Source of the DNA: Bacilli bacterium
GTDB taxonomy: Bacteria; Bacillota_I; Bacilli_A; RFN20; CAG-826
NCBI GenBank assembly: GCA_034185265.1
Contig: JAXFZD010000017.1
Coordinates: 5,757 to 69,756 of the forward strand
DNA length: 64,000 nt
Direction of reading: 5' to 3'
Shown: positions 15,826 to 64,000 of the stretch, in pieces
Position numbering within the stretch: the first letter of the stretch is position 1
How the letters are laid out: each line of letters begins with the position of its first letter
Notes under the pieces: model-generated
What the model saw: the letters and a program-made list of their open reading frames with translations, nothing else
The model's database searches: none
Told to the model about the DNA's origin: nothing
Position numbers and translations under genes: made by a program

Positions 15826-15843
15826 TAAGAATAAAGTAAAATA

Positions 15844-15861
15844 TTAGTAGAAAGTTAGTCG
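15844..15861 (+). repeat. Tandem TTAGTAG-AAAG-TTAGTCG (11-nt period)
   Basis: Direct heptad repeat ending 4 nt before the dxs ATG. No SD is present there. Confidence 0.45.
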
Positions 15862-15865
15862 AAAA

Positions 15866-17755
15866 ATGTCCGATAAAATCAAAAGAATTAATGTAAAAGA
15901 GATTGAGAACCCGACATTTTTAAAAACGCTCTCTTATCCATCAATTAAGCTTCTTTGTCATGACATTAGACATGAAATAATTGATGCTTGCAGCCAATAT
16001 GGCGGACATCTTTCTAGTAACTTAGGCGTAGTTGAATTAACTGTTGCCTTACATAGAGTTTTTGACTTTAACAAAGATAAATTAATCTTTGATGTTGGCC
16101 ACCAATCTTATGTTCATAAGATTTTAACAGGTCGCTCTTTAACAAAAATAAAGCAAAGAGGTTATATTTCTGGATTCCAAAAACGCAGTGAATCTATTTA
16201 TGATCCTTATGAAGCAGGGCATTCTTCAACTTCAATTTCTGCCGCTCAAGGATTTGCCTTAGTTAGAGATTTAAAGAAAGAAAACTTCGATGTAATCGCA
16301 CTTATTGGGGATTCTTCCATAGTTAACGGTTTAGCTTTTGAAGCTTTGAATTCCATTACAGAAACACATTCTAAAGTAATAATTGTCCTTAATGACAACG
16401 GAATGAGCATCTCTAAACCTGTTGGAGGAATTGGAAAGTTCTTTAGAAAAGTTTCCCTAGATAAAGCCTATAGAAAATTTAAAAAAGGATACAAAAGAGT
16501 TCTCTATAGAGGAACTTTGGGAAAGAAATTTGTCGATTTTACATCTTCATTTAAGAACGCATTAAAGCGTAGATTAGTTCCTGTTACCATGTTTGATAAC
16601 ATGGGTTATACATATTTAGGCCCAATTGATGGACACGATATAAAAGCTCTTGAAAAAGTCTTTAAAAAAGCAAAAACATACGATAAATCCACAATTATTC
16701 ATGTTAAGACAATAAAAGGAAAAGGTTATAAATACGCTGAACTTGATACAGCAGGATATTGGCACGGGGTAACTCCTTTTGATATTGAAACTGGTAGACC
16801 AAAGAAATACCATCCAGGTTTAATTTCTTGGAGTCATTACATTTCTGATCTAACTAGATTAATGATGAAAGAACATCAAAATTCTTTCTTAATTGTTCCT
16901 GCAACCCAAAAAGGAGCTGGACTAGGTCAATGTTTACAAGAATTCCCAGAAAGATGTATTGATGTAGGCATTTCTGAAGAACACGCTCTTACTCTTGCTG
17001 GCGCTATTGCTTTGAACAATATGCACCCAATTGTTTCGATATATTCGACATTTTTACAAAGAGCATACGACGAACTTTCTCATGACTGCGCTAGAATGGA
17101 TGTCAGCATGACAATTTTAATAGAAAGAGCTGGACTCGTTGGGGGAGATGGAGAAACTCATCAAGGAATTTATGATGAAGCTTACTTAAAATCTATTCCA
17201 AATATCATTTTAACTATGCCTTCGACTAAAGAAATTGCTTATTCATTGTACCAACAATCTTTTGCTCATCATGGAATATTCGCTATTAGATTCCCAAGAG
17301 ATTTTGTCCAAGAAAGAGAAGATTATCACCCAATTCCTTTACCTTATTTAAGATGGAGATGGGCGAATATTACTAAGAAAAAAGATTTAGCAATCATTTC
17401 AGTTGGTCCTCATGCAAATGAACTAGAAAAACTATTAAGAAAAGAGGGAGTTGAAGCTGAAGTTATCGATCCAGTCTATATTTTCCCAATTTTAAAAGAC
17501 AATTTAATTCTCTTACTTTCTTATAAAAACATCCTTATTTATGATGCTTATGCAACTAAAAACGGCTTTGCTGAATCAATTTTATCTGAATTAATGCTTC
17601 TTTCTTATAAAGGAAGTGTTTTTGTTAGAGCAATCCCAAATATGTTTGTTTCTCAAGGAACTATAGTTGAACAAGAACAAGAATTCGGATTACGCCCAGA
17701 ACAAATCTTAGTTAAAGCTAAAGAAATATTAGAAAATACCAAAAAAGTTAAATAA
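15866..17755 (+). CDS. dxs: 1-deoxy-D-xylulose-5-phosphate synthase
   Basis: 629 aa. Motif GHLSSNLGVVELTVALH and the TPP motif GDSSIVNGLAFEALN...LNDNGMS are present. The xseAB-dxs synteny is conserved. Confidence 0.9.
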   Translation: MSDKIKRINVKEIENPTFLKTLSYPSIKLLCHDIRHEIIDACSQYGGHLSSNLGVVELTVALHRVFDFNKDKLIFDVGHQSYVHKILTGRSLTKIKQRGYISGFQKRSESIYDPYEAGHSSTSISAAQGFALVRDLKKENFDVIALIGDSSIVNGLAFEALNSITETHSKVIIVLNDNGMSISKPVGGIGKFFRKVSLDKAYRKFKKGYKRVLYRGTLGKKFVDFTSSFKNALKRRLVPVTMFDNMGYTYLGPIDGHDIKALEKVFKKAKTYDKSTIIHVKTIKGKGYKYAELDTAGYWHGVTPFDIETGRPKKYHPGLISWSHYISDLTRLMMKEHQNSFLIVPATQKGAGLGQCLQEFPERCIDVGISEEHALTLAGAIALNNMHPIVSIYSTFLQRAYDELSHDCARMDVSMTILIERAGLVGGDGETHQGIYDEAYLKSIPNIILTMPSTKEIAYSLYQQSFAHHGIFAIRFPRDFVQEREDYHPIPLPYLRWRWANITKKKDLAIISVGPHANELEKLLRKEGVEAEVIDPVYIFPILKDNLILLLSYKNILIYDAYATKNGFAESILSELMLLSYKGSVFVRAIPNMFVSQGTIVEQEQEFGLRPEQILVKAKEILENTKKVK

Positions 17756-23113: not shown

Positions 23114-23698
23114 ATGAAAAATATTTTAAATACCTTAAACATTGAAGATCTAAATAACTTCAAATTAGTTAAATTGGAAAAAGAAGGAATCTTATTTAGA
23201 GAGAATGATGTATGCATGCATGTAGGAATAATAAAAACAGGGGAAGTTAAGATTTCATCGTACTCTTTTGATGGAAATGAGATTGTTTATAACAACATAA
23301 AAGTCGGTGAAATGTTTGGAAATAATCTCTTATTTTCACTTAATCCTATTTATAGAGGAAATATAATTGGAAGTAAAACAAGTGAAATATATTTAATAGA
23401 TAAGACATCTTTATTAGATTTGCTTTCATCAAATAAAGAATTTCTTGAGTCTTTTTTAGAATATGAAGCTAATTTAGGGTTATCTCTAAATTCTAAGATC
23501 AAATATCTTTCTTTTAATAAGATAGAAGAAAGATTTTTATATTATTTATTCCTTCATGAGAATGAAATAACTTATAAATCAGTAAAATCTCTAGCAGAAG
23601 AGCTCAACGTTCAAAGAGAAAGTCTTTCAAGAATGCTTACAAAGCTAGAAAAAGATAAAATAATAAAACGAGAAGAACATAAAATTATCAAGTTATGA
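23114..23698 (+). CDS. Crp/Fnr-family transcriptional regulator (cNMP-binding domain + C-terminal HTH)
   Basis: 194 aa. The N-terminal region looks like a beta-roll. The HTH SLAEELNVQRESLSRMLTKLEKDKII is present. Confidence 0.75.
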   Translation: MKNILNTLNIEDLNNFKLVKLEKEGILFRENDVCMHVGIIKTGEVKISSYSFDGNEIVYNNIKVGEMFGNNLLFSLNPIYRGNIIGSKTSEIYLIDKTSLLDLLSSNKEFLESFLEYEANLGLSLNSKIKYLSFNKIEERFLYYLFLHENEITYKSVKSLAEELNVQRESLSRMLTKLEKDKIIKREEHKIIKL

Positions 23699-23981
23699 TT
23701 TTGTCAATGAAAAACCTATTTTGCCTTTATATATAAAATAGTTTATAGGAAATATTATATTCTTTCAGCCATCATTTCTTAGGTTCTAAAACTTTAATTA
23801 TTTTGTTTGATGAAAATAAAATTAAAGCAATTGATTAAAAATAAAATTGACCAGATTGTTTGATCTTTATTTTTAATCTTATCTAAAGTTTCAATGTGCA
23901 AAATTATCAATACATTTTTATATAAACTGACAAAAAATAATGAGTAATCCTTTTTTGAATAACTAAGAGGGTATATTTATA

Positions 23982-24017
23982 TTAGTAGAAAATTAGTAGT
24001 TTTATAAATTTACTAAT
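23982..24017 (+). repeat. TTAGTAG-AAAA-TTAGTAG tandem plus an inverted TTACTAA copy
   Basis: Direct repeats at 23982-23988 and 23993-23999. AATTAGTA (23991-23998) can pair with TACTAATT (24011-24018). Confidence 0.45.
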
Positions 24018-24126
24018 TCTGTGGATAAGTTTGACTTTTCCTAAAGATTGTTTGAATCATATATAAAATTATATATCTTATGTGTATATTAAATTCTTCA
24101 GTATTCATCGAGAGAATTTTATATTT

Positions 24127-24154
24127 TGTTAACATAATAACTATTATGCGAAGT
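24127..24154 (-). other. dif: Candidate chromosome dimer resolution site dif (XerC arm - 6 bp spacer - XerD arm)
   Basis: The minus strand reads ACTTCGCATAA-TAGTTA-TTATGTTAACA. It lies in the non-coding gap where gene orientation switches, 4.3 kb from xerD. Confidence 0.6.
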
Positions 24155-24182
24155 TATAAAAGAAAACAAAATATTCATGAGA

Positions 24183-24222
24183 AAAAAGCAAAATAAAACC
24201 ACCGCTACTGCTCTTCGGTGGT
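24183..24222 (-). terminator. Rho-independent terminator after rsfS
   Basis: ACCACCG (24198-24204) pairs with CGGTGGT (24216-24222). On the minus strand this is followed by TTTTATTTTGCTTTTTT. Confidence 0.7.
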
Positions 24223-24236
24223 CTTTATAGTCAAAT

Positions 24237-27751: not shown

Positions 27752-27774
27752 ATATATCGATATAAAATCTACTA
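27752..27774 (+). repeat. 23-mer intergenic element ATATATCGATATAAAATCTACTA
   Basis: 22 of 23 positions are identical to 45973-45995. It lies between the parC stop and its terminator. Confidence 0.55.
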
Positions 27775-27807
27775 ATTTATAACTAACAATAAACTATATA
27801 TTTACTA

Positions 27808-33272: not shown

Positions 33273-33290
33273 TTAGTAGTTTTTTAGTAA
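33273..33290 (+). repeat. Tandem TTAGTAG-TTTT-TTAGTAA
   Basis: Starts 7 nt after the plsY stop. The 16-mer TTAGTAGTTTTTTAGT is identical to the minus-strand copy at 63390-63405. Confidence 0.5.
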
Positions 33291-52525: not shown

Positions 52526-53821
52526 TTAGTCGATTGCAACGGATGAATTATAATTGACTATACCAAATTTATTTGTTAAATCTTCATTAGAATTCACGCC
52601 AACAAGAAGATAGTTGCTCGTATGACCATAACAAATTTTCTTTTCTTTGTCATACTTTTCAAATAAAACTTCCATATCCTTATTATAAAAAGAGGATTTA
52701 TAGTCATTTCTTAAAGATTTAGATAAAGCTAGAAGTTCATTTACGCGACGTTTTTTAGTTTGCGAATTCACGTCTTTCATTCTGGAAGCAGCTGTTCCTT
52801 CTCTACTGGAAAAAGGAAATACATGAATTTCAGCGAATTTAATATCCTTACATAATTCTACTGTTTCTTTCCATTCTTGCTCAGTTTCTAAAGGAAATCC
52901 AACTATTATATCAGTTGTAATCGCAATATCTGGTCGGATTTCTCTTATTTTATTTACCTTCTCCCTAAAAGTTTCAACGTCATAATTGCGTTTCATTCTA
53001 CCTAAAACTGACGATGAGCCCGATTGCAATGAAATATGAAGATGAGAAACAATCTGAGGATATTTTTTAAGTAAAGATAAAAAATATTCATCAGTTTCTG
53101 TAAAATCTATTGATGAAATCCTTATTCTTTTTAACTCTGGATTAGCCAAAATCATTTCTTCTAATAAGTTAGAAAGTCCATAAGAATCTCCATAAAGATC
53201 TTTTCCATAACTTCCTATATCAATTCCGGTAATAACAATTTCTTTGAAGTCAGATTGAACTAAGTTTTTAACTTCTTCTAGGACAAGTTCTTTTTTTCTA
53301 GATCTAGAAACTCCTCTAACAAAAGGAATTAAGCAATAAGAGCAAAAATGATTACATCCATCTTGGACTTTTACATAGGCTCTAACTCTTTCTTTATAGT
53401 TACTATTAACTAAATCTTCATAACTTTCTGATTGAATGTTAACTTTTATATCTAAAATAGGTTTTTTATCCACTGAAAAAGACTTTATGTAAGGAATAAT
53501 CTTTTTTCGTCTTGTTGTTCCAATGACAATATCTGCCCCACATTCTATTGCTTCTTCACCATTTTTTTGAGTATAGCAACCCATTGCGACTAATATTGCA
53601 TGAGAATTATTTTGTCTGAAAGAACGTATATGTTGACGAGATTTTTTATCCGCCATTCCGGTCACTGAACAAGTATTTAAAATAATTACATCGGCTTCCT
53701 TAATATCTTTAGTTTCCTTGCCTCCAAGAGAAAGAAGTTCTTGGCCAATTGAAAAAGTTTCATATGTATTTACTTTGCATCCAAGCGAAAATAAATAATA
53801 TGAAAAATTATTTCTTAACAT
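52526..53821 (-). CDS. mtaB: Radical-SAM methylthiotransferase, MtaB-like (MiaB family)
   Basis: It begins MLRNNFSYYLFSLGCKVN. The radical-SAM motif CNHFCSYCLIP is present. AGGAG precedes ATG 53821, whereas the ORF track used the upstream TTG at 53842. It sits downstream of rsmE, like Bacillus yqeV. Confidence 0.8.
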   Translation of the reverse strand: MLRNNFSYYLFSLGCKVNTYETFSIGQELLSLGGKETKDIKEADVIILNTCSVTGMADKKSRQHIRSFRQNNSHAILVAMGCYTQKNGEEAIECGADIVIGTTRRKKIIPYIKSFSVDKKPILDIKVNIQSESYEDLVNSNYKERVRAYVKVQDGCNHFCSYCLIPFVRGVSRSRKKELVLEEVKNLVQSDFKEIVITGIDIGSYGKDLYGDSYGLSNLLEEMILANPELKRIRISSIDFTETDEYFLSLLKKYPQIVSHLHISLQSGSSSVLGRMKRNYDVETFREKVNKIREIRPDIAITTDIIVGFPLETEQEWKETVELCKDIKFAEIHVFPFSSREGTAASRMKDVNSQTKKRRVNELLALSKSLRNDYKSSFYNKDMEVLFEKYDKEKKICYGHTSNYLLVGVNSNEDLTNKFGIVNYNSSVAID

Positions 53822-54611
53822 GTTTGGTAAATCTCCTGTCAATAGAGATATTATCGGATGTATTTATACTCAAAAATCTACTAGAAATAAACTTATTATC
53901 AACTAATGCCTTTATAAATCTTTCTCTATCATTATCAAAGAAAGCATCAACAACTGGAGCAGTTCTTTCTCTGATATTTTCATAATTAGGATGATGGCAA
54001 TCTTTATCAAATAAGGCAACTCTTGCATTTAGACGTCCTTGATTATTAACAAAGAAAATTGACAAAGAATCTTTATCATAAAACGCTGCTTCATCTCCTA
54101 CTCTTTTTAATAAAATGAGATTTGTAAATGAAGAATCGAAAACATCAACTCCGTAAGTATCAAAAGGATCTACGACCGCACTTTCAAAGTATTTTAAAAG
54201 AATCTTATAAGGATTATTAGTTAATAATTCTAATCTATTATTATAAATTTGATTAATTGTTCTAGAAAAAATAGGAAGGAAAATATTAGATTCTTTCTCT
54301 TCAATGTGAGGAAGATTAGCACATTTTTCTTTTACTAAGGCTTGAAGCTTTTCTGGATCAACTTTAGATCCTACTTTTTCCACTTCTTTTCTTTCACGGA
54401 AATAAAACTTTTCAAATGTTTTCTTATTAATTAAGGATTTTATTATGATATTCGCTCTAATAACATCAAATGGCTCTACTGCTTTTTGAAAAATAGAAAA
54501 ATAAGGTACATCGTTTAACAAAATTGCATTTCCTAAAAAATATCTCATTTGTTCAGAATTAGAAAATGGGGTATGTCTTTGTCTTTTTGCTAGTGTTTCA
54601 AATAGATCCAT
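53808..54611 (-). CDS. Hypothetical protein; I recognise no family
   Basis: 267-aa ORF. Its start overlaps the rsmE stop (TAATG), and its last 14 nt overlap the mtaB start. Confidence 0.5.
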   Translation of the reverse strand: MDLFETLAKRQRHTPFSNSEQMRYFLGNAILLNDVPYFSIFQKAVEPFDVIRANIIIKSLINKKTFEKFYFRERKEVEKVGSKVDPEKLQALVKEKCANLPHIEEKESNIFLPIFSRTINQIYNNRLELLTNNPYKILLKYFESAVVDPFDTYGVDVFDSSFTNLILLKRVGDEAAFYDKDSLSIFFVNNQGRLNARVALFDKDCHHPNYENIRERTAPVVDAFFDNDRERFIKALVDNKFISSRFLSINTSDNISIDRRFTKHVKK

Positions 54612-60493: not shown

Positions 60494-60520
60494 CTAGCAG
60501 TCAAAACTTTTGAGTGCTAG
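60494..60520 (-). promoter_or_regulatory. CIRCE operator (proximal)
   Basis: The minus strand reads CTAGCACTC-aaaagtttt-GACTGCTAG, against the consensus TTAGCACTC-N9-GAGTGCTAA. It lies directly after the -10. Confidence 0.75.
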
Positions 60521-60524
60521 TGTA

Positions 60525-60552
60525 ATTATAAGAATATAGTTAGCACTGTCAA
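60525..60552 (-). promoter_or_regulatory. Sigma-A type promoter of the hrcA operon: TTGACA-16-TATAAT
   Basis: On the minus strand, TTGACA occupies 60552-60547 and TATAAT occupies 60530-60525. Confidence 0.65.
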
Positions 60553-60566
60553 TAGGAAACTGCTAA
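60540..60566 (-). promoter_or_regulatory. Second, degenerate CIRCE-like inverted repeat overlapping the -35
   Basis: The minus strand reads TTAGCAGTT-tcctattga-CAGTGCTAA. The arms match the consensus at 7/9 and 8/9. Confidence 0.45.
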
Positions 60567-60570
60567 AAAA

Positions 60571-61659
60571 TTAGAAAAAATTTAATAAAATTTTATCTAG
60601 AACAAGAATCCCCTTATCAGAGCACATAAAATTACCGTTTTTTACTAAAACAAGGTCGTATTTTTCAAGGTCTGATATCTTATCTTTATATTTTTCAAGG
60701 AAATCAAATTTGAATATCTCTTTGAATTTATCTAAATTAAATCCCTCACTAAGTCTTAAATTAGTCAGTAAAAAATATTTGAAAAGATCGTCTTTATTAA
60801 CGACTTCCTTATAATCAACAAATTCATGGTCTAAATATTTGTGGAGGTTTTTTGAATTTGTGTATCTAATATTATTTAAATATCCGCTCGCGCCTAACCC
60901 AACCCCGTAATATTCTTCGTTATGCCAATAAGTGAGATTATGTTTTGAAAAATAATTATCTTTAGCAAAATTTGAAACTTCATATCTTATATAGCCTTTG
61001 GCTCTAAGCTTCTCCACTATTAGGTTATAGAAATCTGCTTGTGTATCTTCGCTAGCCTCCTTGATTCCTTGATTAAAGAAAACAGTACTTTTTTCTAAAA
61101 TAAGTGAATATGTAGAAATGTGAGGAACATCTAAGGAAATAAAGTTCTCTAGATCTTCTTCAAGATCAGTTATAGATTGTTCTGGCAAAGCATAAATTAA
61201 GTCGACATTAATGTTACTAATTCCATGTCTTCTCAATAGATTTATTTTTTCTTTTACAAGTCCGAATGAATGATTTCGATTCAGTAATTTTAGATACTTT
61301 TCGTTAGAACTTTGAACACCTAAAGAAACTCTATTTACGCAATGCTTTTTTAAGAGTTTTATCTTTTCTTCATCTAGGCTTTCTGGGTTAGCTTCAAAGG
61401 TAAATTCTGTGTTTTCCCCAACGAATACATCAAGAGATACAAGTAACTTGTTTAATTCGATAATATCAAGACTACTCGGAGTACCTCCACCAATATAGAT
61501 GGTGTTCATTTTTTCTTTTTTTAGTGAAGAAATTTCATATAAAAGAGCGGAAATATATTTTTCCGCCCAGTCTTTTTTATAATAGAGTTTAGTGAAATCA
61601 CAATATGAACAAATTACATTACAAAAAGGTATATGAACATAAAGAGATTTGGCACTCAT
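60571..61659 (-). CDS. hemW: Radical-SAM heme chaperone HemW (HemN-like)
   Basis: 362 aa. The CxxxCxxC motif CNVICSYCDF is present. It sits between lepA and hrcA, as in Bacillus. Confidence 0.85.
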   Translation of the reverse strand: MSAKSLYVHIPFCNVICSYCDFTKLYYKKDWAEKYISALLYEISSLKKEKMNTIYIGGGTPSSLDIIELNKLLVSLDVFVGENTEFTFEANPESLDEEKIKLLKKHCVNRVSLGVQSSNEKYLKLLNRNHSFGLVKEKINLLRRHGISNINVDLIYALPEQSITDLEEDLENFISLDVPHISTYSLILEKSTVFFNQGIKEASEDTQADFYNLIVEKLRAKGYIRYEVSNFAKDNYFSKHNLTYWHNEEYYGVGLGASGYLNNIRYTNSKNLHKYLDHEFVDYKEVVNKDDLFKYFLLTNLRLSEGFNLDKFKEIFKFDFLEKYKDKISDLEKYDLVLVKNGNFMCSDKGILVLDKILLNFF

Positions 61660-61662
61660 TTA

Positions 61663-61920
61663 TTATTCTTTTTCTTTTGGCTCTTCAGTTTCAACCTTCT
61701 CAGATTTTTCTTCTTCTAAAGGTTGTAACTCTTCTTCAATAGGTTGAAGAAGACGATCTAATTCTTCTTTAGCAATTTCTTTATCTGTCTTTGGTTTTTC
61801 GTCATCTTTGAAGAATTTGGATTTCTTTCTAATTAAGTAAACAATTAAAACAATTAATCCGAATACTCCGACTAAGATTACAGGTGTAAGAATAGGTGTT
61901 AAATTTGTTGCTAAAATCAT
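61663..61920 (-). CDS. Small membrane-anchored protein with an acidic Glu/Lys-rich tail
   Basis: 85 aa. It has one N-terminal TM (ILTPVILVGVFGLIVLIVYLI). Its start overlaps the stop of the upstream gene by 4 nt (ATGA). Confidence 0.5.
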   Translation of the reverse strand: MILATNLTPILTPVILVGVFGLIVLIVYLIRKKSKFFKDDEKPKTDKEIAKEELDRLLQPIEEELQPLEEEKSEKVETEEPKEKE

Positions 61921-63344
61921 TTTGAATCTCCTTGTTTAATAGGTGTGTAGAAAAATTTATTTTGAACTTGGACTTTTTCATAAAATCCCTGTGATACTAG
62001 ATTTTCCATAGAAGTTCTAGCAGTTTCATATGCACACCTGGCATATTTTTTATAATCTTGAATTGAATAATATCTTCCAATAGTACAGTGAGATGCAAAG
62101 AAGAATGCTTGCATTTTCTTAACATTTGGATTGATTTCAAGGATATATTTTGCAATATCTTTGATATCCTTTTCTGAGATAACTTCTTGTTTAGGCTTGA
62201 TAGCAAAGACAACTTCTTTCTCATATTCAGCTCTAATTAAATTATTCATATCCTTCTTTCTTAAAGAAGATGGAGCTTTTTTGACTAATTGAGTTTGCTC
62301 TTCTTTTACTTGCTCTTTTGGAACAAATTCTTCTCCTCTATCGATATTATCGACAACATAATTTTCTTCTCTAATTGCCGAACTTCTCATTCTGATAATA
62401 TCATCAGAATTTAATTTGATAAGAGGTGAAAGAATATTGATTCCGTAAGTAATTATATAAGTTAAATCGTACTCGTCAGAAATAGATAAAATGTAGTCAT
62501 CAAGCATGTTTGTCTTAATAAGAACATTCTCTAAGCAGAAATATGGAGCAAACGAAGAAATTTGTTCATGAGCTAAAATTAATTTAGCAATAAGCAAGGA
62601 CATTTCCTCGTTGTAATTAACAAATGGTTTAACATAGTTAATGTAATAGAGAGTTACTAAAGCTTTAATAAAAGGCTTTATGTTAGGATCTTTGATGAAT
62701 TCGAAGAAATTATTCATCATTGAATCAATAAGAATAACAGGAGCTTGATTATATTTAGTTCCTATTAAGGAGGTTGTATTTCTATTTACAGTCTCGGTAA
62801 CTCTATAGAATTCGGTTAATTCGTTTGTATTGGAGAGAATCGAATATAGATTAGCGACTATATTTTCATCAATTGTCGAACCATAATTTTCCTCAATCCA
62901 TAATAAAGCTTTCTTATATTGGATAAAAATATTATGTTTTGGATTATTTTCTCTATATGCACCAGTTACAATGGCTTTAATAGTTAATTCATTTGTATTT
63001 AGGTTAGAGATTGTATTTAAAGCATTCAAACAGTTGTTTAAGCAATAATTCTTGAAGGAATTTTTACTGTTTTCATTTAATTTTTCAGCAAAAAAGCTAT
63101 TTGTTAAAGAAGATAAACTTGTTTCAAATCTAGCAAAAATATCTCTAAGTTTAGGAGTCATTGTAATGCTGAAATTTCTAGAGTTATAAGCAATTAAACG
63201 AGTATCAACGCTGAATTTTTTTCTATAAGCGGAAACATCAGTAAAAATCTTATAAATTAGACTAGTTTTTAAAATAGTCTTTATGTCAGTTTTACTTGCA
63301 TAAGTCTCGTCTGTAAACTTAATACTAAAATTTTCAGTGGCCAT
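61917..63344 (-). CDS. Fic-fold protein with a degenerate catalytic motif and a C-terminal winged-helix domain
   Basis: 475 aa. STIDEN (aa 156-161) fits the [ST]xxxE[GN] inhibitory-helix motif. FYRVTE...APVILIDSMMNNFFEFI...ALVTLYYINYVKPFVNYNEEMSLL aligns to the Fic core, but HPFxDGNGRxxR is replaced by KPFVNYNEEMSL. The C-terminus YETARTSMENLVSQGFYEKV...FFYTPI is wHTH-like. An AAAGGAG SD is present. Confidence 0.45.
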   Translation of the reverse strand: MATENFSIKFTDETYASKTDIKTILKTSLIYKIFTDVSAYRKKFSVDTRLIAYNSRNFSITMTPKLRDIFARFETSLSSLTNSFFAEKLNENSKNSFKNYCLNNCLNALNTISNLNTNELTIKAIVTGAYRENNPKHNIFIQYKKALLWIEENYGSTIDENIVANLYSILSNTNELTEFYRVTETVNRNTTSLIGTKYNQAPVILIDSMMNNFFEFIKDPNIKPFIKALVTLYYINYVKPFVNYNEEMSLLIAKLILAHEQISSFAPYFCLENVLIKTNMLDDYILSISDEYDLTYIITYGINILSPLIKLNSDDIIRMRSSAIREENYVVDNIDRGEEFVPKEQVKEEQTQLVKKAPSSLRKKDMNNLIRAEYEKEVVFAIKPKQEVISEKDIKDIAKYILEINPNVKKMQAFFFASHCTIGRYYSIQDYKKYARCAYETARTSMENLVSQGFYEKVQVQNKFFYTPIKQGDSK

Positions 63345-63387
63345 TTTTTCTCCTTTGAAAATATTATATAGAACAGCGGTATCAATT

Positions 63388-63405
63388 CAACTAAAAAACT
63401 ACTAA
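63388..63405 (-). repeat. Tandem TTAGTAG-TTTT-TTAGTTG
   Basis: Starts 14 nt after the lepA stop. The second heptad overlaps a TTGAAT-16-TATAAT promoter-like sequence for the Fic-like gene. Confidence 0.5.
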
Positions 63406-63419
63406 TCTTGAGGAATTGT

Positions 63420-64000
63420 TTAGTTATTTTCAATAGTTAAAACAGCCATGAAAGCTTCTTGCGGCACTTCTACAGAGCCAACAGCTTTCATTCTCTTTTT
63501 ACCTTCTTTTTGTTTCTCTAAAAGTTTCTTCTTTCTAGAGATGTCACCGCCATAACACTTGGCAAGGACATCTTTTCTTACAGATTTGATATCTGTACGA
63601 GCAATAACTTTGCCTCCAACAGCAGCTTGAACAGGGACTTCAAATTGTTGACGAGGAATAATTTGTTTTAATTTTTGAACGATTGCCAAACCCCTTTTAT
63701 AAGCATCAGGTCTATAGACAATGCAACTTAAAGCATCGATTGGATCGCCATTTAACATTATATCCATCTTACAAAGATCAGATTTTTTATAATCTTTAAA
63801 TTCATAATCTAAGGATGCATAACCCTTAGTGTAAGATTTTAATTTATCAAAGAAGTTGAAGATAATTTCCGATAATGGAAGATCGTATTTTAATATGACA
63901 CGAGTATCGTCAAAATACTCCATATCAACATAGATTCCTCTTCTATTTTGACATAGTTCCATAATTGGCCCGACAAACTCTTTTGGGGACATTATTGAAG
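63420..64000 (-). CDS. lepA: Elongation factor 4 (LepA), C-terminal part (5' end lies outside the window)
   Basis: The frame is open to the window edge. The LepA-specific C-terminal domain is present, ending ...[37 protein letters not shown]. Confidence 0.9.

Follow-up and report, generated by a model that had tools for sequence, protein, structure and literature searches.

We analyzed a stretch of 64,000 nucleotides (hereafter the window) from an uncultured Bacilli bacterium (assembly GCA_034185265.1, contig JAXFZD010000017.1), focusing on a pair of overlapping genes near its right-hand end that encode a Fic-like protein, here called FicL, and a small membrane protein. FicL is a 475-residue open reading frame (ORF) on the minus strand (61917..63344), and its stop codon shares four nucleotides, as ATGA, with the start codon of an 85-residue ORF on the same strand (61663..61920), exactly as described in the first-pass annotation, which was made from the letters of the window. 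The neighbors named there are confirmed by Pfam: the 3′ part of lepA, encoding EF4 (63420..64000, minus strand; LepA_C and EFG_C), lies upstream of FicL, and hemW, encoding a radical-SAM/HemN_C protein (60571..61659, minus strand; PF04055 and PF06969), lies downstream of the pair and starts 3 nt past the stop of the small ORF. Along the minus strand the order is lepA, a 75-nt spacer, FicL, the small ORF, hemW, hrcA, grpE and dnaK. The spacer holds the Shine-Dalgarno sequence of FicL (AAAGGAG, 63350..63356) and a sigma-70-like promoter, TTGAAT-16-TATAAT (63390..63363, minus strand), both of which had been noted earlier; the promoter, assigned to the FicL-small-hemW unit, is a consensus match only, and promoter-like sites were no commoner in our scan than in shuffled sequence. 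The small ORF has its own Shine-Dalgarno sequence (AAGGAG, 61928..61933, minus strand), and hemW is probably co-transcribed with FicL and the small gene. No tRNA genes were found in the 64-kb window, and no Rfam family reaches its gathering score there.

The AlphaFold2 model of FicL (predicted local distance difference test, pLDDT, 87.4; predicted template modeling score, pTM, 0.82) divides into four parts: (i) an N-terminal domain of three helices and a β-hairpin (aa 1–62, 63159..63344), (ii) a Fic core (aa 63–339), (iii) a disordered Lys/Glu linker (aa 340–390) and (iv) a C-terminal winged helix-turn-helix domain (wHTH; aa 391–475, 61920..62174) with the DSSP pattern H-H-H-E-E at aa 410–468, all on the minus strand. 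The first-pass annotation had proposed a Fic fold, a Lys/Glu linker and a C-terminal winged helix, and had named comparison with Fic structures and profiles as the check; all three features are borne out. Searched with Foldseek, the model matches 37 Fic chains in the PDB at E ≤ 1e-3 (best 1.9e-8). SoFic (3zec/3eqx) is the best of these (E 2e-8), in alignments of 415–444 columns to a 371-residue target that take in the Fic core of FicL as well as its C-terminal winged helix; Coxiella Fic2, Dde_2494 and FICD follow, with E values of 2e-8 to 2e-7 for SoFic, Fic2 and Dde_2494. A profile built from 67 FicL homologues matches 4rgl at E 9.3e-13, and also Coxiella Fic2, 7cb8, FICD and SoFic. Single-sequence phmmer comparison with PDB Fic proteins gives E values of 0.35–0.7, and the Pfam Fic family PF02661 scores 21.1 bits, below its cut-off of 24 (E 5.7e-4), and is assigned to about 15 of 120 FicL homologues. 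Two sequence landmarks read earlier as Fic-like, FYR and APVILIDSMMNNFFEFI, align with the Fic ‘GRYR’ and the helix before it. As judged by the model and these matches, FicL has a Fic fold and belongs with SoFic and CccR in architecture, having a Fic core and a predicted C-terminal winged helix.

The active-site loop of this Fic core is degenerate. In place of HPFxDGNGRxxR, FicL has KPFVNYNEEMSL (aa 239–250, 62595..62630, minus strand), aligned on IHPFADGNGRMGRL of 4rgl/SoFic; in the profile alignment, Y-V-K-P-F-V-N-Y-N-E-E stands opposite F-I-H-P-F-A-D-G-N-G-R. Among the 120 closest homologues the catalytic-His column holds Lys in 98, Arg in 13, Met in 6 and His in one, followed by Pro (119) and Phe (118), three variable residues, Asn (88) or Ser (30) at aa 245, and Glu or Asp at aa 246. 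The family consensus at the loop is therefore [K/R]PFxxx[N/S][E/D], and none of the 120 sequences matches HxFxxGN[GK]R. These columns show that the catalytic base has been lost together with both glycines and both arginines of the anion hole, and the strong conservation of the replacement motif points to selection on this pocket. The absence of a catalytic His and a GNGR anion hole, which had been read from the single sequence at 62595..62630, thus holds across the family: on the evidence of the alignment it is a conserved family-wide trait, and FicL is not a decaying gene. The motif STIDEN (aa 156–161), taken in the first-pass annotation for a class II inhibitory helix, fared differently. We reject that assignment, as [ST]xxxE[GN] is found there in only 2 of 120 homologues, and the match is a chance one at the wrong position. 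The segment that corresponds to the α-inh SLAIEN of 4rgl is aa 109–114, LNTISN, which has no Glu; 52 of 120 relatives have a Glu in the α-inh column, and 3 of 120 have the full [ST]xxxE[GN] motif. Class II Fic proteins carry the [ST]xxxE[GN] inhibitory helix in the same chain, and FicL does not.

Conservation is highest in the wHTH, where the mean top-residue frequency is 0.71 as compared with 0.42 in the Fic core, and where the net charge averages +6.6. Its putative recognition helix, YETARTSMENLVS (61992..62030, minus strand), is accompanied by a nearly invariant K-N-K in the wing. The invariant residues of the domain are Tyr439, Glu440, Thr441, Ala442, Arg443, Ser445 and Met446, and the string YETARTSM is found unchanged in 227 of 247 homologues. 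Weak matches to PF03965 (BlaI/MecI wHTH) occur in 27 of 30 FicL members, and a profile of the wHTH run against PDB sequences returned only TyrRS matches at chance level. The N-terminal domain, which has no counterpart in SoFic, contains invariant Tyr15 and Arg41 and nearly invariant Trp34 and Tyr40; folded alone (pLDDT 77), it gave nothing significant with Foldseek, the best match being winged-helix-like at E ~1.7.

FicL relatives are present in at least 425 genomes in a scan of one genome per GTDB species. The genomes that carry them are metagenome-assembled genomes of uncultured ‘Bacilli/Bacillales/Erysipelotrichaceae/Mollicutes/Candidatus Enteromonas’ from gut, rumen and similar samples, and the host lineage is RF39/Enteromonas-like. 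At least 311 homologues are found in a 90%-identity database, and 312 representative clusters at E < 1e-30 in a 50%-identity library; an exact look-up of the protein of the window among public contigs gave no record. We compared 80 FicL loci, comprising 917 kb of DNA in total. By tblastn, lepA is directly upstream in every locus that reaches that far (78 of 80), the gene after the pair is hemW in every locus, and in nearly every one hrcA stands behind it; longer forms of FicL, of 560–615 residues, sit at the same place between lepA and hemW. When the loci are compared two by two, the identity values of the four proteins (FicL, the small protein, HemW and LepA) correlate with one another (Spearman 0.52–0.63), as joint vertical descent would predict. 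The pair, which had been described as an insertion between lepA and hemW, is, with respect to the lineage of this organism, instead a vertically inherited, syntenic core locus, with identities that track those of LepA and HemW.

The product of the small gene has one N-terminal transmembrane helix at about aa 10–30 (61831..61893, minus strand), followed by a basic juxtamembrane stretch and an acidic tail, in agreement with its first description. By the positive-inside rule, the protein would be oriented N-out/C-in with its tail in the cytoplasm. Column conservation within the tail singles out a motif, EELDRLLQPIEEE (aa 52–64, 61729..61767, minus strand), with the consensus EELDRxLxPxEDE (EELDR-phi-L-x-P-phi-[ED][DE]E). 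Its best conserved columns are Glu52 (74 of 75 sequences), Glu53 (67 of 75), Arg56 (71 of 75), Leu58 (67 of 75) and Pro60 (55 of 75), and positions 62–64 are acidic in the family; these columns imply that the tail is more than low-complexity sequence. The mean net charge of the tail is −7.5, versus the +6.6 of the FicL wHTH.

The distance from the FicL stop to the small gene is −4 to +21 nt in 77 of the 80 loci, with the 4-nt ATGA overlap in 24 of these 77, and the gene is present in 78 of the 79 complete loci (locus L033 is incomplete). In locus L045 it lies in frame just past the FicL stop; we considered this as a natural fusion and rejected it, since the two same-frame ORFs have a stop between them, and there is no FicL-small fusion among 247 homologues. 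We collected 225 homologues of the small protein, all of them unnamed, a few carrying the label ‘ZipA’ given by the Joint Genome Institute. The NCBIfam model TIGR04561 is narrowly missed, with 28.9 bits for a cut-off of 30 (E 9.6e-7, aa 7–72); its name is attached to none of the 120 best small-protein homologues, and a search for literature on TIGR04561 found none. No antitoxin family in Pfam or NCBIfam matches the small protein, and its sequence is free of the [ST]xxxE[GN] motif. The small protein is the product of a real, conserved partner gene of FicL. Of the earlier proposal that FicL works with a membrane partner, the coupling of the two genes stands, together with the conserved tail motif; for a working relation between the two proteins the evidence is genomic.

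A 16-bp motif, TTAGTAGTTTTTTAGT (63390..63405, minus strand), formed by direct repeats TTAGTA/TTAGT 11 bp apart and not noted in the first-pass annotation, is the candidate FicL operator. In the window it lies 15 nt past the lepA stop and abuts the −35 element of FicL. When the lepA-FicL spacers are aligned, everything has diverged but aaTTAGTAgTTTTTTrGTt, in which the T6 tract is conserved as well as the TTAGTA words. Allowing at most two mismatches, about 68 of the 80 loci have the 16-mer at 43–88 nt before the FicL start codon, always in the sense orientation, and the rest of the 917 kb has it about 8 times. Counting only perfect copies of a relaxed form, TTAGTA-N5-TTAGT, gives 46 upstream of FicL as against 3 elsewhere (1.4 expected). 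The motif is also found upstream of long-form FicL, in clades that keep the RCAYETARTSM helix. An exact-match metagenome scan, most of whose hits are unrelated chance matches and in which only loci with homologues of window genes are interpretable, shows it in genomes with a GC content of 0.47–0.55. The predicted −35 element begins at +15 (23 loci), +23 (27 loci) or +35 (4 loci) from the start of the motif, which is centered near −42, −50 or −62, and the geometry relative to the promoter is fixed within clades. Exact antisense copies between co-directional genes (loci L085, L148, L079 and L047) favor an element that acts at the DNA level, and the reading of the motif as an RNA element has been down-weighted for this reason. 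In one clade (loci L020, L022, L027, L035, L040, L058, L059, L063 and L078) a palindrome, CTTGT-N3/4-ACAAG, overlaps the predicted FicL −35 element some 23–37 nt past the motif start, and suggests a second, clade-specific regulator site on the FicL promoter.

Four zero-mismatch repeat sites are present in the window (at FicL, at plsY, at 23982 and at 15844), where 0.2 would be expected. The plsY site is a second exact copy of the 16-bp motif (33273..33288, plus strand), located 7 nt past the plsY stop and before a terminator hairpin; the exact 16-mer has the same position relative to plsY in metagenome locus L130. A TTAGTAG-N4-TTAGTAG site (23982..24008, plus strand) lies in non-coding DNA between a Crp-like gene and rsfS, and the exact 16-mer is found at the orthologous rsfS-side place in L119, L145 and L198. 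The fourth site, TTAGTAGAAAGTTAGT (15844..15859, plus strand), falls in the xseB-dxs spacer, at a distance of 6 nt from the start codon of dxs. One further site, TTAGTTATAAATTAGT, with one mismatch (27771..27786, minus strand), lies between parC and yqeG; taken alone it is at chance level, and L154 has the exact 16-mer at the orthologous place. Other exact 16-mers are found at rsmE/mtaB (L164) and, in antisense, at aspS/tkt (L085 and L148); the contigs with all these orthologous copies are unrelated metagenome contigs. As a separate observation, dxs (ATG at 15866) has no recognizable Shine-Dalgarno sequence, and the TTAGTAG-N4-TTAGT repeat fills nearly all of the 39-nt spacer between xseB and dxs (15827..15865).

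The rsfS-side site lies about 120 nt before a dif-like XerC/D site, TTAACATAATAACTATTATGCGAAGT (24129..24154, plus strand), the reverse complement of which, ACTTCGCATAAT-AGTTAT-TATGTTAA, is very similar to E. coli dif. The GC skew flips from plus to minus at ~24 kb and genes converge there, and the coincidence of the dif-like site with both places the replication terminus within the window. The dif-like element is conserved in L198, L119 and L145. Between the TTAGTAG site and the dif-like site is a perfect DnaA box, TGTGGATAA (reverse complement TTATCCACA; 24020..24028, plus strand), the only one in the 64-kb window. L198, L119 and L145 show the same succession of motif, TGTGGA(T/A)AA and dif, and in four genomes the repeat site is ~120–165 nt from dif with the DnaA box between them. 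The FicL locus and the four further repeat sites are within 8–39 kb of the dif-like site. The surrounding region, 23699..24236, consists of 540 nt without convincing ORFs between a Crp/Fnr-like gene (23114..23698) and rsfS; no Rfam match is obtained at E ≤ 1 in the 23.7–24.2 kb non-coding region, and a hairpin at 24196..24226 looks like the terminator of the rsfS operon.

The fold and architecture of FicL are known from other Fic-wHTH proteins, namely SoFic, CccR and Coxiella Fic2. CccR of Yersinia pseudotuberculosis binds −35/−10 sites through its helix-turn-helix (HTH) and represses its own promoter independently of catalysis (PMC9755527). It resembles FicL in joining a Fic domain to a C-terminal HTH, and the related chain 7cb8 is a structural match; it differs in being an active AMPylase (His192) with an α-inh motif (SARIEG), in targeting FtsZ, in being secreted by a type VI secretion system and in binding palindromes as a dimer. 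FicL, by contrast, has neither the His nor the inhibitory Glu; it carries an additional domain at its N terminus and a disordered linker of some length, has a direct repeat as its candidate site, and is encoded by a core gene that is accompanied by the gene of a membrane protein. In Shewanella oneidensis, SoFic binds the 100-bp segment upstream of its own start codon (bioRxiv 10.64898/2026.07.09.737422). Although SoFic (3eqx/3zcn/3zec) is the best structural match in both the Fic and the wHTH parts, it is active on EF-Tu, is regulated by dimerization and by Glu73, and is encoded by a sporadic gene that PADLOC counts among defense genes, whereas FicL is inactive by sequence and universally syntenic. 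Coxiella burnetii Fic2 (8cil), a top structural and profile match that likewise combines a Fic domain with a DNA-binding domain, is active, and its (de)AMPylation is reported to be induced by DNA binding (PMC10628234); FicL has no catalytic residues.

A comparable case is MMSYN1_0805 of JCVI-syn3.0/Mycoplasma mycoides, an essential Doc/Fic-like protein with a His-to-Ser replacement and a C-terminal CccR-like DNA-binding domain, the unexplained role of which was raised in 2026 with the caution that its essentiality may reflect polar effects (PMC13621843). Compared with FicL by its published description only, it shares an inactive Fic domain and a DNA-binding domain, but it has Ser where the FicL family has Lys or Arg, and no lepA/hemW context or small partner is reported for it. 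Its host belongs to the same GTDB class, Bacilli, as a Mollicutes-related lineage. Our literature searches found nothing under the name JCVISYN3A_0805, only a general review on Fic pseudoenzymes, and no description of a K/R-P-F motif, a lepA/hemW locus, an EELDR membrane partner or TTAGTAG repeats.

Based on these observations, we tentatively propose, with a probability of roughly 45%, that FicL is a pseudo-enzyme that has become a DNA-binding protein regulating its own gene, and that its membrane partner possibly controls or tethers it. The earlier idea of a pseudo-enzyme or DNA-binding Fic derivative gains support from the profile and structure comparisons. An invariant recognition helix, encoded by a gene whose promoter bears an invariant motif at a set place, is what autoregulated DNA-binding proteins classically show, and in CccR and SoFic the corresponding domain binds the promoter of its own gene. 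According to this proposal, FicL would descend from a SoFic/CccR-type protein whose enzyme half has died while its transcription-factor half is preserved. Its basic wHTH would bind the direct repeats TTAGTA(G)-N4/5-TTAGT at its own −35 element and thereby autoregulate the ficL-small-hemW unit, and FicL may also bind a handful of other positionally conserved intergenic sites. The Fic core, unable to transfer AMP, would persist as a module that binds or senses without catalysis. The co-translated 85-residue partner, inserted N-out/C-in, would present its acidic EELDRxLxPxEDE motif to the cytoplasm, where it would probably bind FicL, either in the degenerate Fic groove (Lys for His) or at the wHTH as a DNA mimic, and sequestration at the membrane would then set the access of FicL to DNA. 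We infer that FicL binds the motif and touches the small protein, as well as the direction of regulation; the sequestration step we infer from gene coupling only.

Several observations weigh against this proposal. The sites at plsY (after the stop) and at dxs (6 nt before the ATG) are off promoter positions, which suggests a roadblock or architectural role rather than classical operator control. Locus L074 alone is without the small gene, and yet it keeps FicL and the DNA motif. In a mirror-tree analysis the signal between FicL and the small protein is no higher than that of shared vertical descent, and the correlation of the small protein with HemW (0.63) is no lower than that with FicL (0.59). 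By position, too, the small gene is coupled to hemW as tightly as to FicL. Finally, the motif accompanies FicL in every locus examined, and another conserved factor could bind it.

The last point leads to the unlikely alternative that the TTAGTAG motif is bound by such a factor, or is an element of promoter architecture such as an UP-like T-tract, and that the wHTH of FicL is a structural or protein-interaction domain in a protein that is no transcription factor. The motif does sit at −35 to −50 with respect to the predicted start, a region occupied by UP elements and by many activators, and in conservation the T6 tract equals the TTAGTA words; invariant words that contain G (TTAGTA, GT) are, however, untypical of UP elements, copies of the motif occur away from promoters and in antisense, and the extreme specificity for the FicL promoter in ~0.9 Mb is the usual mark of an autoregulator. 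A better case, although we still doubt it, can be made for FicL being mainly a non-catalytic GTPase binder (of LepA/EF4, EF-Tu or FtsZ) that would work through the retained region for docking Fic targets and be tethered to the membrane by the small protein, with DNA binding autoregulatory only or absent. Docking on GTPases is known from active relatives: SoFic is reported to modify EF-Tu switch I in a target-binding mode conserved among Fic enzymes (bioRxiv 10.64898/2026.07.09.737422), and CccR binds and AMPylates FtsZ (PMC9755527). The invariant Tyr180-Arg181 of FicL aligns with the Fic ‘GRYR’, lepA is the constant upstream neighbor, and the ‘ZipA’ label of some small-protein homologues recalls a transmembrane anchor with a charged linker. 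Against this, the label reflects low-complexity similarity, the adjacency to lepA is ancestral Firmicute synteny (the order in Bacillus is lepA-hemN-hrcA) and carries little functional weight, and the Fic core, through which such a protein would act, is less conserved than the wHTH (0.42 versus 0.71). Also unlikely is that the small protein serves HemW instead of FicL, as the membrane adaptor of this heme-chaperone-like radical-SAM protein, and that the three genes do no more than share an operon. The 3-nt distance between the small ORF and hemW, their overlap or abutment in many loci, the retention of FicL without the small gene in L074 and the mirror-tree values all fit such an arrangement, but hemW is near-universal in Firmicutes without any such partner, the small gene occurs only where FicL does in the data examined, and the 4-nt overlap in 24 of 77 loci is with FicL.

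The location of the sites near the terminus brings in an improbable reading in which FicL and its anchor form a sequence-specific DNA-membrane tether or terminus organizer, similar to the replication terminator protein (RTP)/Ter system, MatP or Noc and derived from a dead Fic protein. FicL would occupy oriented TTAGTAG sites clustered around dif and the terminus, and the acidic partner would link them to the membrane or to the place of division. By analogy with rtp in Bacillus, the autoregulatory member of the set would then be the site at the FicL promoter. RTP of Bacillus subtilis is a winged-helix protein with its gene near the terminus, and is autoregulated via its own oriented site; the cores of its Ter sites hold ACTAA/TACTAA, the reverse complement of TTAGT/TTAGTA. 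The spacing of the sites differs between the two systems, and we rate this reading low because the orientation of the repeat sites follows the direction of the local gene, as at plsY, and not the replichore. It is very improbable that FicL still works as an enzyme by some different chemistry, such as a catalysis that depends on Lys or the use of another substrate. The strong conservation of [K/R]-P-F-x3-[N/S]-[E/D] would suit such an enzyme, and Doc and AnkX are Fic-fold enzymes with variant motifs that catalyze other transfers; however, 119 of 120 members are without the general-base His, acidic or aliphatic residues stand where the Gly-Asn-Gly-Arg phosphate-binding loop and the last Arg would be, and every active Fido enzyme known retains the His. 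Effectively refuted is the reading of the pair as a mobile toxin-antitoxin or SoFic-type anti-phage cassette between lepA and hemW, suggested by a match of the PADLOC SoFic model to FicL (aa 140–279, E 4.7e-8) and by the frequency of small partner genes next to Fic toxins. As a SoFic defense gene FicL is rejected, since the model match is partial, the catalytic motif is dead and the synteny is that of a fixed core locus across 80 loci. As a Fic/Doc toxin-antitoxin module (VbhT/VbhA, FicT/FicA or Doc/Phd) the pair is rejected because the partner is a downstream membrane protein with neither the [ST]xxxE[GN] motif nor an antitoxin family, and because inheritance is vertical. The pair matches no PHROG and has no flanking repeats, its GC content equals that of its surroundings, and fixed synteny, joint descent and matching GC content together exclude a mobile cassette.

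Fic proteins have been studied as enzymes, and the FicL family presents a large, vertically inherited group in which the enzyme is dead while a DNA-binding-type domain and a DNA motif that looks cognate to it are frozen. It is kept in the strongly reduced genomes of abundant uncultured Bacilli of the gut and rumen. For inactive Fic-HTH proteins, it offers a testable model with a candidate operator, a candidate partner peptide and a candidate small regulon, and the question it poses is the same as that posed by MMSYN1_0805. If the partner does sequester FicL, the two would constitute a new kind of small-protein/pseudo-enzyme signaling pair; if the sites organize the terminus, they would belong to a new chromosome-organizing system.

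Further observations concern sequences outside the FicL-small pair. Words of the TTAGT/TAGTT type recur at 9–11 bp spacing in two other contigs (positions oriented on the motif): four direct copies by a mraZ-like gene (L113:600-700), and five direct followed by five inverted copies in L138 (5330-5480), which has a GC content of 0.55. Between rsmE and mtaB the window has a 267-residue ORF (53808..54611, minus strand) for which Pfam offers nothing at E ≤ 1e-5; what lies between the homologues of rsmE and mtaB in L164 is instead a copy of the 16-bp motif. A gene for an RDD-domain membrane protein lies between hemW and hrcA in L081 (9201-9620) and L083 (9249-9644), an insertion that belongs to the long-form FicL clades and is absent from the window. 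Upstream of hrcA, the window carries two inverted repeats (60494..60520 and 60540..60566) that resemble CIRCE (controlling inverted repeat of chaperone expression), with arms TTAGCAGTT-N9-CAGTGCTAA and CTAGCACTC-N9-GACTGCTAG. They bracket a perfect promoter, TTGACA-16-TATAAT (60552..60525), and the arrangement is that of an ordinary HrcA operator.

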